From sequence record PZ445443.1: a DNA stretch of 64,000 nucleotides. The stretch is one strand, 5' to 3'. Below, in pieces: positions 16,162-61,555 of this stretch (its first letter is position 1; each line of letters opens with the position of its first letter). The notes beneath the pieces are model-generated. The model saw only the letters and a list, made by a program, of their open reading frames with translations. It was not told where the DNA came from and did no database searches. The position numbers and the translations under genes were made by a program. Source of the DNA: a phage.

Positions 16162-16179
16162 TTTTTTAACTGAATTATC

Positions 16180-16206
16180 AAGGGGCTTAGGCCCCTTTCT
16201 TTTTGT
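16180..16206 (+). terminator. intrinsic terminator
   Basis: AAGGGGC-tta-GGCCCCTT hairpin followed by TCTTTTTGT. Confidence 0.65.
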
Positions 16207-18665
16207 CTGCTCTTCCCCTACCATAAACGGCCATACATGGCAAGTGGAATAATTGACGAGCCATCAATCCCACACACTGTACAAATATACATGTAAAATA
16301 ACTATTGCATAACTTTTCATTGTGTGGTAGCAGGGCCATTTTTACACGTTTTTCCTTCCAAAATTGCACGTAATGCAGCATTTGCACAAAATTTAACCTG
16401 ATGCATATCTTCAATAGCTTGTCAACAACTAAAAATCTTTATAAGTCATACACTTACATAACTACAAAAGCGTTTTCTACGTGAAAAATCGAGTATAACT
16501 ATAGCCGCCAGACCTCAGAATTTACGTACGCTCGACATTCTATAGCCTGCTAAGCATTTATTCCAACCATAGAATAACGGAATAGTCAATACCTGCATAA
16601 AATAATTATTCGTGTAAACTGCATAACATAAATCGGCCCAGGTGTCAACATTTTTCGTAAACAGTCCGAAATTATCACTATGAGTTATCATAAACAGGGA
16701 AATCTTTAGTCGTCTAATGTTTACTGTACATTACTATACTGACTGGAATCATTAGATGACTAAGAGAAAGATAAGAAATAATTAACAATACAATTATTTT
16801 ATCTGTAACAATAAGGCAACTATGCAAACGAATGGCATGGCGCGACGGAGTCGCGACATAATATAAAAGCAGTAACCATCACCCCCGTGATAGTTTGTCT
16901 GCAAACTATTAATCAGATCATAGTTGCCTTGTATTTAGTTAATCATGACATAACAAGCAAGGCAACTATAGATCTGCTAATAGTTGCCCTGCTTTTATAT
17001 TATGTCATAGAAACACCCGAAGGGGTGACCAAAGGTCACCTGGCATGGCCAGTGAAAGATTATTAACTTGCTAATAGTTATCATGCAAACGAATGGCATG
17101 GCTGATTATCGGTGTGTAAACAGTCAATCATGTAAATGGTTAGCATGTGAACAATCAGGAATGTAAACAATCCAGTGTGTAAACTAATAGGTGTGTAAAA
17201 GTGTCATGTTGTGTCAGTTAGGTCACATTATGTCATATTGTGTCAGACAAGTTTTTCTCCTCTTTGTCAAGTGCTGCATGAAAAATTTACAATCTGGTAT
17301 GGTAGCATTTTTGCGGCCCTGTTTACATTCAGGGGTGTATGTATAATCCTTGTTGTGTGGGCGTTTAGACGTCTGGACGGTCAGAAGTCTGCAGGTTAAT
17401 ATCTAATCTATTGGCTGCTAACTATATCCCACACAAATAGTAAGAAATATGATTGTTATATGCGTAAACTGTAACTCATGTTATCAATCCCTGTATGTAT
17501 CGCCAGTGGTGCGCATAATGGGTATTATGTTAAATTGCCCGTAATGATAAAGGTTCTCACAATGATAGGTATTCTCATTCACCCCCACAAAATAGATTGC
17601 AAATGTTGTGCCACTGTGTGAACGGCCTAGCCTATTAATTTGCCTCACTGCCTCGATATTTGAGAATTGTTATAAGAATGAGAAGTATTCCCATTTCGTC
17701 CGCCTGGCAGCACTCCTGTAGGTCAGGTCAAAATCGTGGTAGAACTGGACCTGTTCAGATATTTCTGGCTGACTCTTCAGGTCTGTGTGGGAAAAGCCAA
17801 CCTCTCCGGCGGGGCAGGGGATAGGTCAATTAAAAAATTTACGTGGTGTATGAAGCGCTCTTCAGGTAAGGCAGGTATTATGGGATGAAACCCTCTTCAG
17901 GCAATGATATTTGTGGGTGTGATATTTGCTGGAAAGCCAGATATGACGGGACTCCCGGCGGGGCAGGGGTGGTACAGACAGGGAAAATATGAAGGATGTG
18001 GTTGGGTAGATTGATCAGACAGGTAGAGTATGGAATATGTTACAAGTATGTTAAATATGGAGGTTGAATATCTGTAGGATTTGTGTGTAAAATCAAAGAC
18101 TTAAGTGGTGTTGTGGTATTTTCTATAAATAATTCAAGTTTAATAGGTGATATTTGTCTCTATCCGCTTTGTGTGGTAAACAGATTCAGATGAGATTGGT
18201 TTACAAGTGTATACATAATATACAAATTAAAGATACAAGAAACCCCCCTCCCCCTTCGGCTACCATTCACCTTTTCCTCTGACTGGTACTTAAACACTTA
18301 TTCAGACTCTTCAGGTTATCACCTATATATCATATGGCAGTGACTGGTGTCCTCCGGCCCCTCTTTCGTCACCCGTCCGCTTCGCCATGCTAATGCCATA
18401 GCCAATGGTTCGGTTGTTCACCCTGTTCACTCAGGTGTATCTCCATACCCCTTCAAACCGAAGAGAACAGAAAACCCGAATTACTCGGTAAAAGAAAAGA
18501 GAAGAACTTAATTTTATCAGGATAGGCAAGAATGTCAAGGCATGACTGCTCACTAAACAAGCAAACAGTCATGTGTGGGAGGTAAGTGATTGTGGTGGTA
18601 GGAAATTTAGTTGAAAGATGTGTTATAGGTGCTTCCAGCACTTTAGCCGGGCAGCTAATTGTGTG
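16207..18665. other. 2.5 kb ORF-free repeat-dense region between convergent gene blocks (candidate origin, packaging/injection-control region or ncRNA locus)
   Basis: No credible ORF with RBS; 20-bp direct repeat ATGCAAACGAATGGCATGGC (16822, 17083); TAGTTGCC iteron-like motifs; palindromes CGCGACGGAGTCGCG and GGTGACCaaaGGTCACC; GTGTGTAAAC run about 17120-17200; CTC(C/T)CGGCGGGGCAGGGG twice (17802, 17952); CTCTTCAGG 5-6 times. Confidence 0.6.
18511..18539 (-). promoter_or_regulatory. sigma70-like promoter on minus strand (TTGACA-17-TAAAAT) firing into the ORF-free region
   Basis: Reverse complement of 18534-18539 is TTGACA, of 18511-18516 is TAAAAT, spacer 17 bp; no CDS downstream. Confidence 0.45.
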
Positions 18666-18881
18666 TCAGTCCAGCGGTTCATCCTCTACTTCACTGAAAT
18701 CAATGTTCATGGTCTCCTCCCAACCATCGATCTCAGCACAAGAGTGGAGTTCTTTAGGGTTTACTCCCAAAGCCTCAGCAACAGAGTCTATATTTAACAC
18801 CTCTGGCAGGTATGATTCATCAAATTCAAGGTAAATCAGGCCACGAGTGTTGTCAGCCCCACCAAATATTTCTATCTTCAT
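18666..18881 (-). CDS. small acidic protein (MKIEI-start family)
   Basis: 71 aa ORF, acidic C-terminus. Confidence 0.5.
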   Translation of the reverse strand: MKIEIFGGADNTRGLIYLEFDESYLPEVLNIDSVAEALGVNPKELHSCAEIDGWEETMNIDFSEVEDEPLD

Positions 18882-19002
18882 GAAATCTCCTCTGGAAATG
18901 AGAGTGTGAACAGGGTTTTATGCGTTCCAATACGCTGGAATTATACACGTTTGCCTCTTCAGGCCATGCTTTAGCATGAGGAACCTGTGTGGGCTCGGTG
19001 CT

Positions 19003-19416
19003 TCATAGTCTACCACCTCTGAACTCTTCGTGCTCAGGCATAATAGAGAACCAGATATCTACGATGTCTCCCCACGTTAGGTCATCAGCCTCAGGATCTA
19101 CCTGGAGCGAAGATGGAGAATCTTCAGAATCGAAGTTTTCCTCTTTCACTGGCTCAGCCAAGGGACATATAGCCACTCCTTTGGATGTCTCTTCAGATGC
19201 ATGTGTGTTTATCATGTTCCACCCGTGAGTATTCCGGCAACAGCCACTATGGACGTAATGATCATCAGAATCACCACCAAAACCTCTGACAATGTTTTCA
19301 TTGTGTATCCCATATTCTCCAAACGATGTGTGGATACTATCACTGGAGCGACAATGTGTCAACAGAAACGCCGCGAGGGTTTGGTTAAAATCCGAGCGTA
19401 TGGTGATTTGGGTCAA
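19003..19416 (-). CDS. hypothetical acidic protein (start uncertain)
   Basis: Track start is TTG; a shorter ATG-initiated version is possible. Confidence 0.4.
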   Translation of the reverse strand: MTQITIRSDFNQTLAAFLLTHCRSSDSIHTSFGEYGIHNENIVRGFGGDSDDHYVHSGCCRNTHGWNMINTHASEETSKGVAICPLAEPVKEENFDSEDSPSSLQVDPEADDLTWGDIVDIWFSIMPEHEEFRGGRL

Positions 19417-55449: not shown

Positions 55450-55800
55450 TCAGTAGATGTTTTGTTTAATCTCTATTCCAAACTTTTTAAACGAGTCAGC
55501 TGCAAGCATGAATTTACGAGCCGCTGATGGGTTAGAAGTATGCACGAAAATCTTCACGTTGTCAACTACAGGGGGCTTACCAAATACAAATTTTTCCTCC
55601 AACATAGATAGGCAATCGTACCCTTCGAACACCTCTCCAAGGTCGTTGTCCATGTGCCACTCAGAAACGCGTCTGTAGAGCTTTCCCCTATCGTTAATAA
55701 AATCTATAAACTCGGAGGAATTCTTTAGCCAAATAGCGTCTGGGAGCCCATAATTTGACGGATCTCTCAAGTCATCCAGCCACACAATCAACTTCTTCAT
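55450..55800 (-). CDS. hypothetical protein adjacent to Sir2
   Basis: 116 aa; 9 bp from Sir2 start. Confidence 0.5.
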   Translation of the reverse strand: MKKLIVWLDDLRDPSNYGLPDAIWLKNSSEFIDFINDRGKLYRRVSEWHMDNDLGEVFEGYDCLSMLEEKFVFGKPPVVDNVKIFVHTSNPSAARKFMLAADSFKKFGIEIKQNIY

Positions 55801-56732
55801 TGCATATAGTTCTCGTTGTGGAAATAGTAATCAAGTATCTCACGGCGTTCCTGCTCCAGGAGGCAGTTCCACACATCTTCTGTGTAATTGTTACGAATGA
55901 AGTTTACCATGCCGTAAAACTCTTCGTCAACACGTTTAAAGATATCATCATCCCAAATCTTCCAAGCTTTACCCCTCATTACGGCCTTCCGTGCCAGGTA
56001 GTATGGAGACTTGATCTTCAGCCGCAGGTCATAAGGGTAGTAAGGCTTACGGATCATATACCCTTCGCCCCTTGTTTCTGCGGCTAATTCTTTTGCATAG
56101 CTGAACGGGATTTCACGCACAGTGTGAGGACGTTTTGCACCAAGGTATTTGGCAATCCCATCTAAAGCTGCTTCTGGTAGCATTATTCCAGAATCATTAT
56201 ATCTGCAACCTATCAAATATGCGCCATGGTCTTCTTGAACAATATGCGGATCTGAAGGGTGACAAATTTCAAACATGAATGTCATGTTTTCATTGCCCAT
56301 AACCTTCTTGATAAGATCTAAATTACCACATTGCTCTTGGATGGTTTCCTTTGCAAGGTTACAATATGGAGAATCAAGAGACCCGGTTGTTGAGAACAAT
56401 AGGTCACCTTTATGAGATGATACCACACCAAGGAATCCGTTCTTTTTCTCTACCGCAGTCACAAGCTTATTGTCAGGCAGGTTGGTGGAGTTTTCTCCCA
56501 AGTTAAACACTTTTGTGAAGGGCCATGCCACAACATTTCCTTCATTACCTACAACAATGCCTCGGCACTCCAGTAAACGAGGGGACAAATGCCATAAATT
56601 GTTGTAAAATACTTTTCTAGCATATTTATAGATCTTTAACCCGAGATCTGGGTAATACCTACTGGTTACAAGACCTTTGTCAACTAGGTCGTCTGCATTA
56701 AAATACTTCATTATACGTTCCTCATTTGTCAT
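55797..56732 (-). CDS. Rnl1-like RNA ligase
   Basis: Nucleotidyltransferase motifs: I EKKNGF, IV GEGYMIRK, V LRLKIKSPYY. Confidence 0.55.
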   Translation of the reverse strand: MTNEERIMKYFNADDLVDKGLVTSRYYPDLGLKIYKYARKVFYNNLWHLSPRLLECRGIVVGNEGNVVAWPFTKVFNLGENSTNLPDNKLVTAVEKKNGFLGVVSSHKGDLLFSTTGSLDSPYCNLAKETIQEQCGNLDLIKKVMGNENMTFMFEICHPSDPHIVQEDHGAYLIGCRYNDSGIMLPEAALDGIAKYLGAKRPHTVREIPFSYAKELAAETRGEGYMIRKPYYPYDLRLKIKSPYYLARKAVMRGKAWKIWDDDIFKRVDEEFYGMVNFIRNNYTEDVWNCLLEQERREILDYYFHNENYMQ

Positions 56733-56832
56733 TTTGTCAGTCTATCCTGCCACACAAATAACCTAGTGTCAACACTTGAAATTAACAAAACAGTCAGGTA
56801 TACTACCGTTGAAATTAAAACGGAGGGTCACT

Positions 56833-57243
56833 ATGTCTAAAATGCTATATATCGTGCGTGGTCTACCAGGGTCTGGCAAATCAACACTGGCAAATGCGCT
56901 ATCTTTAGAGGGTCTGTATCCACATTTTGAGAACGACATGTTCTGGTATGACGATGACGGCAATTACAACTGGGATGCAAGTAAAGTAACACTCGCAGCA
57001 AAATGGTGCAAAGATAACGTAGAAGATATGATGCGTATGGGATACGACCGTATCGTGGTAAGTAATACGTTTACAAAAGAAAAACATGTGCAGGAATATG
57101 TTGACATGGCAATCAGTCATGGGTATAGTTATACCGTGATCGTGGTTGAAAACCGCCACGGTAATAAAAGCATTCATGATGTTCCAGACAAGGTTGTGGA
57201 TCGTATGGAACGCCAGCTTAAAAACTGCATTAAACTTAAATGA
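56833..57243 (+). CDS. P-loop polynucleotide 5'-kinase-like protein
   Basis: Track start 56776 trimmed to ATG 56833 with GGAGGG RBS; Walker A GLPGSGKST. Confidence 0.5.
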   Translation: MSKMLYIVRGLPGSGKSTLANALSLEGLYPHFENDMFWYDDDGNYNWDASKVTLAAKWCKDNVEDMMRMGYDRIVVSNTFTKEKHVQEYVDMAISHGYSYTVIVVENRHGNKSIHDVPDKVVDRMERQLKNCIKLK

Positions 57244-57250
57244 GGAATGT

Positions 57251-57805
57251 ATGAAATACTTTGTAACAAGCGACACACACTTTCTCCACCAGCGGGTCAT
57301 GGAGTTTGATTCATGTCAAAAACACAGATCTCAGTATGATCACAATCTTGACAGTATGAATGCGGGAATCATCGCCAAGTGGAACTCTGTTGTGTCACCT
57401 GCAGACACTGTGTTCCACTTGGGAGATATTGCGTGCACCAATGATAAGAATATCAACAACTTACTTCCAGATATTCTAAATATGTTGAACGGACATATTA
57501 TTCTTGTTCGTGGCAACCATGACACAAGGACGACTGTCAGAATTATGAAAGAGTTCGGTCATGAGGTTGTAGATTATTACGAGCTTCGCCACAACAAGAA
57601 TTTGATCTGTATGAGCCATTACCAGTTTGCAAAGTGGAACAGAAAGCCTCACGGATCAGTCCAACTGTTCGGTCATGCTCACGGAACCACACAACAGTTG
57701 TTTGGCAGGCAGCTTGATGTCGGTTGGGATGTGTGGGGGAGACTCTTACCATTAGAAGAGGCATACCGTATTGCAATGAGTTTTGATATTGACAGCAGGG
57801 AGTAA
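57251..57805 (+). CDS. calcineurin-like metallophosphoesterase
   Basis: Track start trimmed to ATG 57251; motifs DTHF, GDIA, GNHD. Confidence 0.65.
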   Translation: MKYFVTSDTHFLHQRVMEFDSCQKHRSQYDHNLDSMNAGIIAKWNSVVSPADTVFHLGDIACTNDKNINNLLPDILNMLNGHIILVRGNHDTRTTVRIMKEFGHEVVDYYELRHNKNLICMSHYQFAKWNRKPHGSVQLFGHAHGTTQQLFGRQLDVGWDVWGRLLPLEEAYRIAMSFDIDSRE

Positions 57806-57852: not shown

Positions 57853-58203
57853 ATGAAAGATGGGGATAAGCTGCTATATCTTAAAGTCCCCCTTGAAATA
57901 CTATCTATGTCAAAAGTTTTGAATGACACAACTGGGGAGGTTGTTGTTCTTGACTTGTATGACAAGATCGTATACTGCTACCTGCACAACTGGTATAAGC
58001 TTGGAGGAAATTCACGCTTCACACCAAGCACAAGGAAAATTGCAGCAGATGTTGGGATAAAGAAAACAAAAGCAGCAGCGTGCGTTAAAACTTTAGAATG
58101 TGCAGGAGTGGTTGAAACATCCACACAAGGGAGAGGTAAAAGATGCACATTTTCCAAAGTTTTGCCACCAGAAGAAGTTATTCGGATGTCAACAACTGGT
58201 TAG
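57853..58203 (+). CDS. putative HTH DNA-binding protein
   Basis: ATG with CAGGAG RBS; HTH-like STRKIAADVGIKKTKAAACVKTLECAGVVE. Confidence 0.5.
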   Translation: MKDGDKLLYLKVPLEILSMSKVLNDTTGEVVVLDLYDKIVYCYLHNWYKLGGNSRFTPSTRKIAADVGIKKTKAAACVKTLECAGVVETSTQGRGKRCTFSKVLPPEEVIRMSTTG

Positions 58204-58278
58204 ACCAGTAAAAAACTTAAATATCTGTACTATAAGGATTCGTATGTTTTATGTTCGCCATGGAACGGATACTATTAA

Positions 58279-58362
58279 CTGTCCGTGATACGGACACTAC
58301 TGTCCGTCACGCGGACACATCTGCCCGTAATACGGACACTAACTGTCCGTGATACGGACACA
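58279..58362. repeat. array of four tandem palindromic operator-like sites (GTCCGT-N3-ACGGAC) at 21-22 bp spacing
   Basis: Cores at 58281, 58302, 58323 and 58345; copies 1 and 4 perfect, 2 and 3 one mismatch. Confidence 0.6.
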
Positions 58363-58500
58363 TAAAGAATATAACTAAAATAACTAAATAATAAAAAATA
58401 AAAGATCTAGTACTTATGGTACTAAGTACATATACTTAACTTATGTAGAATATACTAGATCCTAAGTACCATGTTTTAAATTTATTACTTACTATGGACA
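58363..58500. promoter_or_regulatory. AT-rich region with nested inverted repeats
   Basis: About 85% AT; inverted repeats AGATCTAGTA/TACTAGATC and ATGGTACT/AGTACCAT. Confidence 0.4.
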
Positions 58501-58790
58501 GTGTCGGCCCTTCATTGGCACTCGCCTACGAGGGGCGAGATGCCGGGCCTCCTTGGTGCACACAATAACAGAAGTGCATACATGCAGGTCTGTTAACATG
58601 TGTGGGAGCGAAGCGATAGCGCAGGCCAAAGGCCGAGCACTGATGTGGACCACCGACGAAAGCTTGCCAGCGCCGTAAGGAGTCGGTTGAGAGTCTCCCG
58701 CGCGAGCTTGGATGAAGTTTATGTGTGGAAACTGACAAGAAGGCCCCTAAATCGCTCCACAGCTATATAAACTATACCAGGTAATGCAAT
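58501..58790. other. GC-rich ORF-free island A (candidate structured RNA or protein-binding region)
   Basis: Locally high GC in an AT-rich genome; hairpins visible; only low-complexity ORF lacking RBS. Confidence 0.35.
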
Positions 58791-58864
58791 CGCACCAGTT
58801 TGATAGAAAAGCTCGTTACAAAGCGATACAGTGAGTTTTTCTATAACTTGAAGAGGAGGCAGTT

Positions 58865-59443
58865 ATGGGTTCACGCAAAGATGACCGTGAAAAGATTGCA
58901 AAACGTTATCAGAATGAAGAACAGATGGAGAAAACTTTCAAGTGGAAGCCCGGTTTCCAGCGTAATCATTCTAACGCTCGTGATCGTAAGCATCCGGATA
59001 AGTGGCTAACACCGCCAAATGATGGCATGCAGGTTGGGGATGAGAAGGAGATGTCGCCTGGAAAAGATGGCAACTACATTCGCACTAAGGACGCTGGTCC
59101 AAAGGATGACAGCTATCTTGTAGATAAGGTTCTTGATGGTATCAATGTAGATGTTGACACTGCACGAAACCTTTTTCTTGGGTGGTATCGCACAGGTTTT
59201 TTCGACATCAAGGCTATTCGTCGTGTTTGTGATATTAAAAAGTCTGCATATGATGACGACTCGTTACATCGCACCCTGAGACAATATTCAGAAAGATATG
59301 GTCATCCGGTTATCACTCTTGACGATGTTAACGAAGTGATGTATCATGCAGAGGTTGTTGCAGGAAGATTTGGTGATGCATATCTTGATATCCTTTCTGC
59401 AAAGGATGAGGTAATGTTAAATAAGATTTACTATGAACGCTGA
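58865..59443 (+). CDS. hypothetical protein
   Basis: ATG with GAGGAGG RBS; 192 aa. Confidence 0.55.
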   Translation: MGSRKDDREKIAKRYQNEEQMEKTFKWKPGFQRNHSNARDRKHPDKWLTPPNDGMQVGDEKEMSPGKDGNYIRTKDAGPKDDSYLVDKVLDGINVDVDTARNLFLGWYRTGFFDIKAIRRVCDIKKSAYDDDSLHRTLRQYSERYGHPVITLDDVNEVMYHAEVVAGRFGDAYLDILSAKDEVMLNKIYYER

Positions 59444-59453
59444 GGGGCGATTA

Positions 59454-59642
59454 ATGAACAACCCGGTAGCAAAGAACTGTAATAAGTTCAACAAGTCTGC
59501 AATTCACACTGACAGGAAAAAGAGCTGGTCTCCTGACATTGACGAGGAGCTTGAGAGTTACTTTGAAGACCTGGTCACCAATGCAGATGAGGTTGCGATT
59601 AAAGAATACGCAGACAGGAAGGATAAGGCCGGAATCTGTTGA
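59454..59642 (+). CDS. hypothetical acidic protein
   Basis: Track start 59433 trimmed to ATG 59454 with GAGGGG RBS. Confidence 0.45.
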   Translation: MNNPVAKNCNKFNKSAIHTDRKKSWSPDIDEELESYFEDLVTNADEVAIKEYADRKDKAGIC

Positions 59643-59667
59643 CAAAAATAGTGTTACCTGATAAGAT
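59639..59667 (+). promoter_or_regulatory. sigma70-like promoter (TTGACA-17-TAAGAT)
   Basis: Hexamers upstream of CDS 59719. Confidence 0.45.
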
Positions 59668-59718
59668 CTGCAATATGATGTGATGCAATTTTAACTTACG
59701 AGGTCTACAGGTAATGCT

Positions 59719-59961
59719 ATGTTTAAGGTTAAGCTCGTTTTTCGTTCCATGAATGAGGATTATTTAGAAGATGAAGGTGAATTTCGTGCACTGGATGATG
59801 CAATAGATTTTGCCAACGACTTAGCTTGTATGAATACAGGTTATGGGCTATGTTGTTGGGATGGTGGTGTTCAGATCGGTGATAGCAAGATCTTCTACTT
59901 CTACCCTGAGCCTGATAACAAACAAATTAAGTATGTTTTATTTATTTGTGCTTTACAATGA
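59719..59961 (+). CDS. hypothetical protein
   Basis: 80 aa ORF. Confidence 0.5.
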   Translation: MFKVKLVFRSMNEDYLEDEGEFRALDDAIDFANDLACMNTGYGLCCWDGGVQIGDSKIFYFYPEPDNKQIKYVLFICALQ

Positions 59962-60040
59962 GGTTGTTTTCGTGTATCATGATGAATATCCAATTTAAAG
60001 ATGAATTTGATGGCTTTATCTCTGGATGCTTTGAAACAGG

Positions 60041-60250
60041 GTTCGGAGAAGACTGAGTTCCCCTTAGAGGGCTTGATAGTGCACCACACTTAAAATGGTA
60101 GGGGCAGCCAGCACATGACGATGTGACCCCAGCCAACCTGTAACAAGGTCGAGCCGAAGCGCGGGTAATAGGCCTCTGGTAACCCACTTGTTGGGTCTTG
60201 CTGGTCCAGGACGCTGGACAAGTCGCAGGGAACACCACCCTGCGGCGAAC
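60041..60250. other. GC-rich ORF-free island B (candidate structured RNA)
   Basis: High local GC; hairpins CACAT-gacg-ATGTG, GTCCAG-gacg-CTGGAC, GCAGGG-aacaccac-CCCTGC; overlapping minus ORF looks spurious. Confidence 0.35.
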
Positions 60251-60296
60251 TTGACAATCAGTATTTGCTATGATAAAATCCACCTATCACGTGATA
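60251..60296 (+). promoter_or_regulatory. sigma70-like promoter (TTGACA-18-TAAAAT) with perfect palindrome TATCACGTGATA at the start site
   Basis: Palindrome at 60285-60296 lies between -10 element and RBS of CDS 60308. Confidence 0.45.
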
Positions 60297-60307
60297 ATGG
60301 AGGAAAC

Positions 60308-60646
60308 ATGGCGGATACAACTAAAAAGCGTCGCCGTAGAGGCAGACCTCTGAAAGAGGAGTCCAACGCCATTCAGCTAGAGAAGAACATCCTTGATATG
60401 AAGGAATCTTTTATAGCGATGGTTCCAGAAGCTCACAAAGTTTTAAGAGAGCTGATGTTGGACCCGAAAACCAAACAAAATATTCGTCAAAGCATTGCAG
60501 AGTATGTTCTTGATAAGGCAGACCGAATGCAGGAAGAATATGATGAGATGTTTGGTGAAGAGGAAGAGGTGGTAGTGGAAGAGGCTGAAAAACCAGCACC
60601 TTTTATGCCATTTACTACAGAAATACAGCCTGTTAGCAATAGATAA
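60308..60646 (+). CDS. hypothetical protein with basic RRRRGRP N-terminus and acidic C-terminus
   Basis: Track start 60188 trimmed to ATG 60308 with GGAGG RBS. Confidence 0.55.
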   Translation: MADTTKKRRRRGRPLKEESNAIQLEKNILDMKESFIAMVPEAHKVLRELMLDPKTKQNIRQSIAEYVLDKADRMQEEYDEMFGEEEEVVVEEAEKPAPFMPFTTEIQPVSNR

Positions 60647-60742: not shown

Positions 60743-60817
60743 GCCCTGTTAGCTTAGTGGATAAAGCAGCGGCCTTCTAAGCCGTTGACACTGGTTCGAG
60801 TCCAGTACGGGGTGCCA
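60743..60817 (+). tRNA. tRNA-Arg (anticodon TCT), CCA encoded
   Basis: Hand-folded cloverleaf: 7-bp acceptor stem (two G-U), anticodon loop CTTCTAA, T-loop TTCGAGT. Confidence 0.7.
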
Positions 60818-60821
60818 AATT

Positions 60822-60908
60822 GGGGAGTTATCCCGTAGAGGTAGCGGTGTAGACTGTAAATCTATTGTCATTGCGACTCGGGTGGTTCGACTCCACCACT
60901 CCCCACCA
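60822..60908 (+). tRNA. tRNA-Tyr (anticodon GTA), long variable arm, CCA encoded
   Basis: Perfect 7-bp acceptor stem GGGGAGT/ACTCCCC; anticodon loop CTGTAAA; T-loop TTCGACT; 87 nt. Confidence 0.7.
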
Positions 60909-61022
60909 AATTTATATTTTTAGATGCATAAATAATACAGATAATGGCATTGATATTTATCGTCGTTTATACTAGTCACTAACTGCTCGAAAATCAGTGT
61001 CATTATCAGTATAATTTATAAA

Positions 61023-61113
61023 GGAGGGTAGGGAGCAATGGTGCTCAAGCGGTCTTGAAAACCGTCCCGTTGAGGATGACTCGATGATGGTTCGATTCCA
61101 TTACTCTCCGCCA
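61023..61113 (+). tRNA. tRNA-Ser (anticodon TGA), long variable arm, CCA encoded
   Basis: Acceptor GGAGGGT/ACTCTCC; anticodon loop CTTGAAA; T-loop TTCGATT; 91 nt. Confidence 0.65.
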
Positions 61114-61211
61114 CATTGTTGACCTTGTAATTAAGCGAAAGTCGGAAGCAGAACCGGATTATCAAATGTTACAGTCGTCATCGCCGACTAGCAACATGGT
61201 CAACATACTGA

Positions 61212-61308
61212 GCTAGGTAAGCCCTTTGGCAAGGGCGAGGATTTTTAATCCTGAAAATAGACGAGGTAGTCGTTGAATACATAGGTGGTTCGATTCCATC
61301 ACCTAGCA
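61212..61308 (+). tRNA. atypical tRNA-like gene (possible UUU anticodon, oversized variable region, no encoded CCA)
   Basis: Perfect acceptor stem GCTAGGT/ACCTAGC and T-arm GGTGG-TTCGATT-CCATC; anticodon arm non-canonical (AGGA-TTTTTAA-TCCT); 29 nt between anticodon and T stems; 97 nt. Confidence 0.4.
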
Positions 61309-61315
61309 CCTTTTT

Positions 61316-61391
61316 GCTGATGTAGCACAATCGGTAGTGCAATTGATTTGTAATCAATAGGTTGTAGGTTCAAGTCCTGCCATCAGCACCA
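61316..61391 (+). tRNA. tRNA-Thr (anticodon TGT), CCA encoded
   Basis: Perfect acceptor stem GCTGATG/CATCAGC; anticodon stem ATTGA/TCAAT with loop TTTGTAA; T-loop TTCAAGT. Confidence 0.75.
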
Positions 61392-61392
61392 A

Positions 61393-61467
61393 GGCCCTGT
61401 AGCTGGAAGGTTCAAGCAAGCGACTCATAATCGCCAGACGGTGGTTCAATTCCACCCAGGGCCACCA
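61393..61467 (+). tRNA. tRNA-Met or tRNA-Ile2 (anticodon CAT), CCA encoded
   Basis: Perfect acceptor stem GGCCCTG/CAGGGCC; anticodon loop CTCATAA; T-loop TTCAATT. Confidence 0.7.
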
Positions 61468-61478
61468 AATAGTAAATA

Positions 61479-61555
61479 CTCCGCGTAGCTCAGCTTGGTA
61501 GAGCGCCTGATTTGGGATCAGGAGGTCGAGTGTTCGAATCACTCCGTGGAGACCA
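61479..61555 (+). tRNA. tRNA-Pro (anticodon TGG), CCA encoded
   Basis: Acceptor CTCCGCG/CGTGGAG; anticodon stem CCTGA/TCAGG with loop TTTGGGA; T-loop TTCGAAT. Confidence 0.7.

Follow-up and report, generated by a model that had tools for sequence, protein, structure and literature searches.

The window analysed here is the whole of a 64,000-nucleotide stretch of phage DNA (sequence record PZ445443.1), which derives from a Vequintavirus (rV5-like) phage of Escherichia coli. We find that a GC-rich island at 58503-58795 is a non-coding, conserved element that forms hairpins, keeps their pairing through compensatory changes, is linked to iterons and is dispensable in the laboratory. Tentatively, we read this island as the conserved, structure-dependent accessory arm of an iteron-type, lambda-O-like origin module. 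The module would run from a winged helix-turn-helix (wHTH) gene of the initiator family through four iterons and a strand-asymmetric, A-rich AT tract into the array of hairpins. We rank this reading first because the layout is of the lambda type, with an initiator-family gene, dyad iterons, an A-rich tract and a conserved palindromic flank; that the module is an origin, and the whole mode in which the array acts, is what we infer.

The island region is present in 118 GenBank phage records, every one at 88% identity or more, and in many Vequintavirus phages at 98-99%. A sensitive ('distant') blastn search against phages found it in no genus other than Vequintavirus; the proteins flanking it are genus-restricted, and Seunavirus and Mydovirus show no conserved synteny through the phosphoesterase. 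DNA-pattern and protein-based scans of IMG/VR yielded one divergent phage only, plus one chance match, and matches in Collinsella and other genomes were rejected as chance 21-mers. In the IMG/VR contig L004 (137 kb) the downstream protein is 82% identical. The wHTH gene and repeats of this contig (TGCATCAGAT-type, L004 2250-2360) are unrelated in DNA to those of the phage, the wHTH proteins being 28% identical, and similarity restarts exactly at the first bases of the island: the core is 86% identical and the first hairpin, P1, 94% (3 of 50 positions differ). By these alignments, L004 and the window differ by a clean swap of an initiator/iteron specificity cassette in otherwise collinear genomes. 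Third codon positions of the neighbouring genes are 21-33% different between the two; because the core changes less than these, the island is under purifying selection. Since it is kept while the initiator and iterons differ, it is also separable from the initiator/iteron cassette, and its retention beside unrelated initiator-gene and iteron sequences would favour a function as a retained arm of the module.

We credit structure to comparison with relatives, that is, to compensatory changes, and not to folding energy, because folding of the whole island is only moderately above shuffles and the same on both strands (z = -2.1 each). P1 is a two-tier hairpin at 58503-58552 on the + strand, with an outer stem (58506-58510/58545-58549) and an inner stem (58517-58527/58533-58544) that has a bulged A at 58540 and TAYGAGG within the loop. 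A hairpin quoted in an earlier reading made from the letters alone (the sequence-only reading), CTCGCC at 58521-58526 and GGCGAG at 58534-58539 around the loop TACGAGG, does exist and is the inner part of P1. Against dinucleotide shuffles P1 folds at -28.1 kcal/mol as RNA (z = -3.0) and at -15.1 as DNA (z = -3.1). Its 15 pairs are 100% paired in 6 distinct sequences, with 2 compensatory changes from G-C to U-A in plasmid L037. The second conserved hairpin, H2 (58652-58687, + strand), pairs ACCGAC (58652-58657) with GTCGGT (58682-58687) in its outer stem and CTTGC (58663-58667) with GTAAG (58675-58679) in its inner stem, around the loop CAGCGCC. All 10 pairs of H2 are kept in 9 distinct sequences, 3 of them by compensatory change between phages and plasmids, and the basal pair shows an A-U, G.U, G-C series. 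None of 500 shuffles reached the score of H2. When the 3' partners of P1 and H2 were slid by 1-3 columns, compensatory pairs fell to zero and pairing to 20-60%. Together, five compensatory changes separate the phages from plasmids of ~13.5 kb, with pairing at 100%. A covariance model of the H2 region gives exactly one copy per genome and has no match elsewhere in the window, nor in the fetched Seunavirus and Mydovirus loci. The stem-loops that the sequence-only reading had proposed are thus upheld, as is the covariation between homologous loci that it had named as a check.

The same core is found on plasmids. When metagenomes were scanned for a 21-nt pattern from the core, two contigs of ~14 kb came up, L014 and L019, each with a 62-68-nt core at ~84% identity. 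It also lies on circular, non-mobilisable E. coli plasmids of 13.2-13.7 kb; of 5,426 complete E. coli genomes 7 have it, at nine places in seven plasmids, and none has it on a chromosome. This plasmid family (L037-L045) includes NZ_CP020521.1, NZ_CP035869.1, CP148565.1, CP134895.1, NZ_CP043822.1 and NZ_CP074841.1. In ~11 plasmid or metagenome elements the core lies directly downstream of iterons and an A-rich tract, with several different iteron sequences, and this recurrent linkage, together with distantly homologous wHTH proteins, points towards the origin module. The plasmids hold a ~2.2-kb stretch free of coding sequences (CDS) in which the order of elements is invariant: iterons whose sequence varies by plasmid, the A-rich tract, a conserved 5' segment, 0-3 hairpin cassettes, the core (TGTGGACC-H2-AGAGTCTCCCGCGC), GGCCCCTAAATGGCC, and then the strong sigma-70 promoters of the downstream operon. 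The cassettes are mutually unrelated hairpins in otherwise near-identical plasmids, and each has the 8-nt TGTGTGGG directly before it. Many are perfect palindromes with 3-nt loops, flanked by alternating purine-pyrimidine tracts, and C(UUCG)G loops occur among them. One plasmid, L037, carries a homologue of P1. In type-2 plasmids H2 is replaced by another palindrome, TCCGGATAAG...ATCCGGA, while the flanking motifs are kept; this palindrome presumably resembles the REP units of E. coli. A CRISPR array or repeat mimic was rejected: such arrays have repeats of ~28-37 nt with the host repeat hairpin and unique spacers between them, whereas the only recurring unit here is the 8-nt TGTGTGGG. By eye, 58691-58720 is similar to the I-E CRISPR repeat of E. 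coli, but this likeness was rejected too, since the stretch lacks the 3' stem arm of that repeat.

What kind of replicon shares this core with a phage? Besides homologues of O-like replication initiators, the plasmids carry genes for a major head (capsid) protein, a neck protein and a tape-measure protein; Vequintavirus proteins (27% identity) make up the matches that span most of the tape-measure protein. The plasmid gene tables, which are incomplete, annotate no terminase. The 13-kb plasmids have the look of satellites of rV5-like phages, plasmid-borne and so far undescribed, or of miniature relatives of these phages. At least two non-coding elements are common to phage and plasmids: the core of the island and a three-hairpin element of 51 nt. 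The latter lies at 17009-17059 in the window and consists of three abutting triloop hairpins (CACCC-GAA-GGGTG, GGTGACC-AAA-GGTCACC and CTGGC-ATG-GCCAG); an inverted degenerate copy lies at 19142-19192, and the copies in the 13-kb plasmids show a compensatory change in the second stem (GGTGACT-GAA-AGTCACC).

The GC-rich island in an AT-rich genome, as the sequence-only reading described it, is the top GC peak of the 64 kb. The segment 58501-58750 (56.8% GC) is the highest of all 250-nt windows (z = 4.1; mean 42.4%, standard deviation 3.5%); GC is 0.585 at 58500-58699 and 0.54 at 58600-58799, with 0.32-0.43 in the flanks. The limits first given, 58501-58790, need correction: the conserved element starts sharply at 58503, its GC-rich core (57.2% GC at 58503-58745) ends at ~58745, and a variable tail continues until ~58795. 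Likewise, the AT-rich part of what had been called an operator/AT-rich region upstream stands, and the operator is replaced by four iterons of 21-22 bp at 58276-58361, followed by the A-rich AT tract. These iterons (repeat family D1, spacing 21, 21 and 22) each have the internal dyad TGTCCGTnnnACGGACA. The tract (58362-58502, 141 bp, 21.3% GC) is a candidate DNA unwinding element; its first 41 bp (58362-58402) are 7% GC and 71% A on the + strand, and AT-rich palindromes (I2, I10, I11) come further on. The four repeats with 58362-58402 make up the arrangement expected of an iteron-type origin, at least three direct repeats of ~20 bp and then an AT-rich tract. In L004 and in each plasmid lineage unrelated repeats stand in place of the phage iterons, and there too an A-rich tract sits between iterons and island.

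The gene that precedes the iterons (57853-58203, + strand, 116 aa) encodes a winged-helix (HTH_36) protein, a probable member of the lambda-O-like initiator family, and forms the variable specificity half of the module. Its Pfam HTH_36 match (E = 2.3e-5) is slightly short of the cut-off. The protein is a distant homologue of the wHTH proteins of L004 and the plasmids (24-28% identity, pairwise E of 1e-6 to 8e-5), and the plasmid homologues match the PHROG 'replication initiation O-like' (E = 1e-7); the phage protein itself has no direct match to the O family. GenBank labels the gene 'replication initiation protein' or 'transcriptional regulator'.

Between P1 and H2 lies a variable middle hairpin (58553-58605, + strand; stems 58559-58564/58599-58604, 58566-58572/58589-58595 and 58575-58578/58583-58586; z = -3.0). 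Phages A6-1, Pr121LW and typing phage 5 lack 18 nt of it (58562-58579), and the middle hairpin is dispensable. The motif TGTGTGGGAG (58599-58608, + strand), which stands before every plasmid cassette, is a candidate 5' strand of a long-range helix, H1, whose candidate 3' strand is CTCCCGCGCG (58695-58704, + strand), kept in nearly all family members. As predicted, H1 would include three U.G pairs, and an extension of it takes in the pair 58589-58712, which is U-A, A-U and G-C in three clades; since these three states track phylogeny and the adjoining pairs break, this pair is suggestive only, and so is the modelled helix. At 58609-58643 (+ strand) are small hairpins, GCG/CGC and GGCC-AAA-GGCC (58624-58634), with the GCGAAGC motif, which alone fold no better than shuffles (z = -0.8). 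The motif TGTGGACC (58644-58651, + strand) is unchanged in most phages and in type-1 plasmids and reads TGTGGAG in type-2 plasmids. Further on, AGGCCCCTAAAT (58741-58752, + strand) is the phage form of a conserved motif whose plasmid form is GGCCCCTAAATGGCC. The variable tail (58746-58795, + strand, 42% GC) is 67% identical to L004, against 86% for the core, and by eye is faintly similar to the plasmid GTAGTGCAATTGCATTAC segment. The best DnaA boxes in the island, judged by eye against the consensus, match at 7 of 9 positions. TGTGTGG is not peculiar to the island: the 64 kb contain 15 copies on the + and 17 on the - strand.

Adjoining the tail is a hyper-conserved leader of the next CDS (58796-58864, + strand), which holds a hairpin with a 12-bp stem (58803-58814/58833-58844; repeat I8; z = -3.0) and then the ribosome-binding site GAGGAGG. 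It is 93% identical to L004, against 83% for the CDS downstream of it, an ORF (open reading frame) of 192 aa (58865-59443). Its conservation, with a hairpin just ahead of the ribosome-binding site, suggests a translational or stability operator; the leader may or may not be part of the element.

Is the island coding? The ORFs over it are short, begin with GTG or TTG and lack a ribosome-binding site (31, 41 and 56 aa on the + strand; 53 and 70 aa on the - strand). Two of them are 'hypothetical protein' for some GenBank annotators and nothing for others, and in the original rV5 annotation the 56-aa ORF is gene 78, with an isoelectric point of 12 and without a homologue. A gene for a small protein, of 31 aa at 58501-58596, of 56 aa at 58600-58770 or the 70-aa ORF of the minus strand, could draw on these annotations, on the sizes of the observed indels (18, 3 and 3 nt, plus a -1/+1 pair) and on six substitutions at 58646-58697 that fall in one codon phase. 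For comparison we used eight diverse relatives together with the homologues on plasmids. In-frame stops interrupt the minus-strand ORF in 6 of these 8 relatives. The annotated 56-aa ORF remains open, yet the phase-matched substitutions hit its second codon positions and are synonymous only in a start-less frame bounded by stops. Moreover, the open frame of plasmid L014 differs from that of the phage, and 1-nt indels between plasmids shift the frame. A small protein is thus very improbable. The sequence-only reading, which saw an ORF-free island with only a low-complexity, RBS-less ORF, is supported on this point, and a diverged protein-coding remnant, which it had named among the refuting cases, is rejected from the related genomes.

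A further question is whether the folded species is RNA or DNA, and on which strand. The sequence-only reading had suggested a ribozyme, an intron remnant or a regulatory RNA. Rfam 15 at gathering thresholds gives only six tRNA matches in the whole window (60743-61552), none of them in the island, and ARAGORN finds no tRNA or tmRNA there. A scan by E-value of 58200-60450 has rli43 (RF01477) as its best match, at 23 bits against a gathering threshold of 100; the match lies mostly over the iterons and AT tract, and its likeness to the island is one of base composition only. Four plasmid or metagenome homologues gave nothing relevant in Rfam. No described RNA of these kinds is therefore recognised. 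Compensatory pairing is equally expected of hairpins in single-stranded DNA and is therefore compatible with either molecule. RNAalifold energies are equal on both strands, folding z-scores over 19 family members show no consistently better strand, and in most phages the - strand is at least equal to the + strand. At the island edges no sigma-70-like promoter or intrinsic terminator is predicted, the nearest promoter-like sites on the + strand being at 57789 and 59227; in the plasmids a strong terminator lies upstream of the element, and the sense strand has no predicted sigma-70 promoter. With no delimiting promoter or terminator, strand-equal hairpins, many triloops and constant attachment to iterons and AT tract, a DNA-level or replication-linked role is at least as likely as a free-standing RNA, and we only slightly prefer single-stranded or supercoiled DNA over a + strand transcript as the folded species. 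The strand symmetry, the missing promoter and terminator, the triloop palindromes and the alternating purine-pyrimidine tracts beside them are hints of action as DNA.

If the island is an arm of an origin, the initiator would bind the iterons and the A-rich tract would melt, as homology and architecture suggest. The GC-rich palindromes next to the tract could then fold into hairpins on the exposed or negatively supercoiled strand. Comparable to ssi signals, such hairpins might serve as an auxiliary element, as a boundary to unwinding and/or a signal for replisome entry or priming; alternatively, they might act as a site responsive to supercoiling or gyrase, like pSC101 par. The folded form may also be on the transcript instead of the DNA. 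Initiator and iterons would be exchanged between relatives as a specificity cassette, with the array retained.

Several points weigh against an arm of an origin. The HIDEN-SEQ preprint (10.1101/2025.11.20.689424) reports transposon insertions in Bas54, a close relative whose gene coordinates map one-to-one onto the window. Insertions in the wHTH gene (57853-58203; 17 of 20 TA sites hit, mean count 13.6) and in the iteron 'ORF' (58251-58352; 4 of 7, 18.1) are tolerated, not lethal, with ~10-fold lower counts. In the island, bas54_0214, which covers P1 and the middle hairpin (58501-58596), is hit at 5 of 5 sites (mean count 135) and bas54_0215, the core ORF (58600-58770), at 4 of 6 (78), while the downstream CDS (58865-59443) has 31 of 34 (140). 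Under laboratory conditions the phage can thus do without an intact island, the effect of the core being at most two-fold, and the contribution of initiator and iterons needs neither an intact nor an adjacent island. The authors of the rV5 paper could not define a replication origin; their supplementary gene table lists the wHTH protein as 'structural protein (MS evidence)', a label from mass spectrometry that sits oddly with a replication initiator. The multibranch core (58598-58706) folds above shuffles only as + strand RNA (z = -1.5), the values for DNA being +0.1 and +0.8. The island is also probably transcribed anyway, as likely follows from its place on the sense strand of a co-directional row of genes (all those from 56776 on are on the + strand) without a predicted upstream terminator. 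Finally, one transfer may lie behind both contexts, that in the phage and that in the plasmids, in which case the linkage to iterons would amount to fewer independent observations than it appears.

The rV5 map also has an unexplained 'non-coding' box. In the window, 16162-18585 (on to ~19330) is a 2.4-kb stretch without an ORF of at least 80 aa, with short repeats of the GTGTGTAAAC type (~17110-17250), recurring CTCTTCAGG motifs and seven + strand copies of TGTGTGG at 16321-19327. This stretch is probably both the rV5 box and a ~2-kb intergenic region of Bas54 that is without transposon insertions; if so, it is essential.

Tolerance of insertions is the main evidence against the origin arm, so that another explanation stays close behind: a novel structured non-coding RNA (ncRNA), or a structured domain of a polycistronic + strand transcript, that acts as RNA independently of replication. 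It could be a regulatory, protein-sponging or anti-defence RNA whose stem-loop cassettes are swappable functional domains. We regard this as a possibility of some substance, if a doubtful one. Such an RNA would suit a GC-rich island in an AT-rich genome beside a tRNA cluster and RNA-repair genes, the compensatory changes and the series at the base of H2, the C(UUCG)G loops of the plasmid cassettes, a core domain closed by a U.G-rich helix that beats shuffles only as + strand RNA, and the sense-strand location with no upstream terminator. Dispensability in the laboratory suits an accessory RNA, and the turnover of cassettes resembles diversifying evolution. Yet no Rfam family matches, a promoter and terminator of its own are lacking (the plasmids even have the strong terminator upstream and no predicted sense promoter), neither strand is favoured by folding energy over the family as a whole, and triloop palindromes are common. 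A search of public assemblies for transcripts encoding the island ORF returned genome records only. An RNA acting on its own also leaves the constant attachment to iterons unexplained.

The cassettes also raise the possibility of selfish or neutral palindromes, like REP/BIME or miniature mobile elements, built up by TGTGTGGG short-repeat recombination in a permissive intergenic spot, so that conservation would reflect recent spread and not function. The 0-3 unrelated cassettes between identical 8-nt repeats in near-identical plasmids fit this picture, as do the natural 18-nt deletion, which arose between short direct repeats, the exchange of H2 in type-2 plasmids for a REP-like palindrome, and the tolerated insertions. 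We consider it improbable, for very different replicons keep core, P1 and H2, with compensatory and not random changes, third codon positions of neighbouring genes change faster than the core, each genome has one copy with no other in the window, and nothing similar is on the chromosomes of the 5,426 E. coli genomes. Less probable still is a cis site recognised by a helper function, such as the start of packaging, replication induced by the helper, or induction, with the 13-kb plasmids as satellites of rV5-like phages. The structural genes of these plasmids, with the Vequintavirus matches of the tape-measure protein, would agree with it, and so would the terminase missing from their incomplete gene tables and the non-coding elements common to plasmids and phage. 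However, the rV5 genome is circularly permuted and packaged by headful (rV5 paper), and a pac site should be essential whereas the island tolerates insertions; compensatory changes in stems are not expected of a double-stranded protein-binding site, and the satellite relationship is itself putative.

Around the module, genes for RNA repair (RNA ligase 1, polynucleotide kinase/phosphatase and a metallophosphoesterase) lie directly upstream at 55797-57805, and a cluster of seven tRNA genes lies ~2 kb downstream. One tRNA-like gene (61212-61310; 97-99 nt) receives no assignment from ARAGORN (4-base anticodon 'atcc') and scores 35.5 bits in Rfam; other annotators call it tRNA-Lys, and it may hold an insertion, an intron or an unusual anticodon loop. 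A second island (island B, 60011-60260) is the second-highest GC peak (54%) and is ~91% conserved in L004 over the aligned part. Directly after it come a near-consensus sigma-70 promoter (60251-60279) and a gene whose Bas54 orthologue is essential; by eye, island B shares GGTAGGGGC...CCCC...GGACTTGC motifs with a plasmid segment located between promoters. Eighteen GenBank records (MG0656xx; 'Campylobacter phage C12, A141, ...', labelled as Campylobacter jejuni phages) match the island region, those listed at ~89-99% identity, and are probably mislabelled or contaminant genomes.

Phages of the rV5 type are widely used candidates for therapy and biocontrol. The locus offers a concrete candidate origin module (initiator, iterons and A-rich tract) with an unusual conserved hairpin arm, and it adds a structured element that is not in Rfam. 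Through it, a virulent myovirus is also unexpectedly linked in sequence to small plasmids of E. coli that resemble satellites of that myovirus; if the link is functional, it is a directly testable case of satellite and helper sharing replication or RNA signals. Should the element act as RNA, it would add an ncRNA family that is modular and swaps cassettes. A bolder idea, which we think unlikely, is that the island belongs to a class not described before, a modular array whose stem-loop cassettes can be exchanged, with TGTGTGGG as delimiter and the conserved core as anchor. Lytic rV5-like phages would share this array with the capsid/tape-measure plasmids, which would parasitise them. It might be a handle by which the helper replisome is captured at the origins of satellite and phage; alternatively, it might be an RNA array that works in trans, as decoy or anti-defence, and is subject to diversifying selection.

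How does the element compare with known systems? With ori-lambda the module has in common a small wHTH protein of the initiator family, four dyad iterons of ~20 bp, an A-rich tract and a palindrome-containing segment; in both, iterons and the DNA-binding domain of the initiator vary between relatives and the flank is conserved. The flank here, however, is ~250-290 nt of multiple GC-rich hairpins, whereas that of lambda is a 28-bp palindrome; the iterons here lie outside the initiator gene, the origin is putative, and the flank is dispensable under transposon insertion. The ssi signals (G4-type, phiX-type, RSF1010 ssiA/ssiB) and pSC101 par are likewise hairpin-rich, non-coding, adjoining iterons and an AT-rich region, and helpful yet not strictly required for replication. 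This likeness is one of architecture alone, hairpins next to iterons and AT tract, and TGTGTGGG-delimited cassette modularity is not a known feature of ssi or par elements. RNA II and RNA I of ColE1 resemble the island as fast-evolving, origin-adjacent sequences of several hundred nt with multiple stem-loops that vary by compensatory substitution, but here a suitably placed promoter, an evident antisense partner and an RNase H-type transition are missing, and the putative origin is driven by iterons and initiator. REP/BIME elements share clustered GC-rich imperfect palindromes, short conserved linkers and transcribed intergenic regions, and one plasmid cassette is like a REP stem. Unlike them, the island has a conserved non-palindromic core, occurs at one locus in each replicon and is not on E. 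coli chromosomes; membership in that group, with its many dispersed chromosomal copies, was rejected on the nine plasmid places and zero chromosomal ones. No described family matches; nearest in kind are accessory elements that flank origins and structured RNAs associated with origins. What appears to be new is that the cassettes are modular and set off by a constant 8-nt delimiter, and that such an element is common to a virulent myovirus and small plasmids encoding phage structural proteins.

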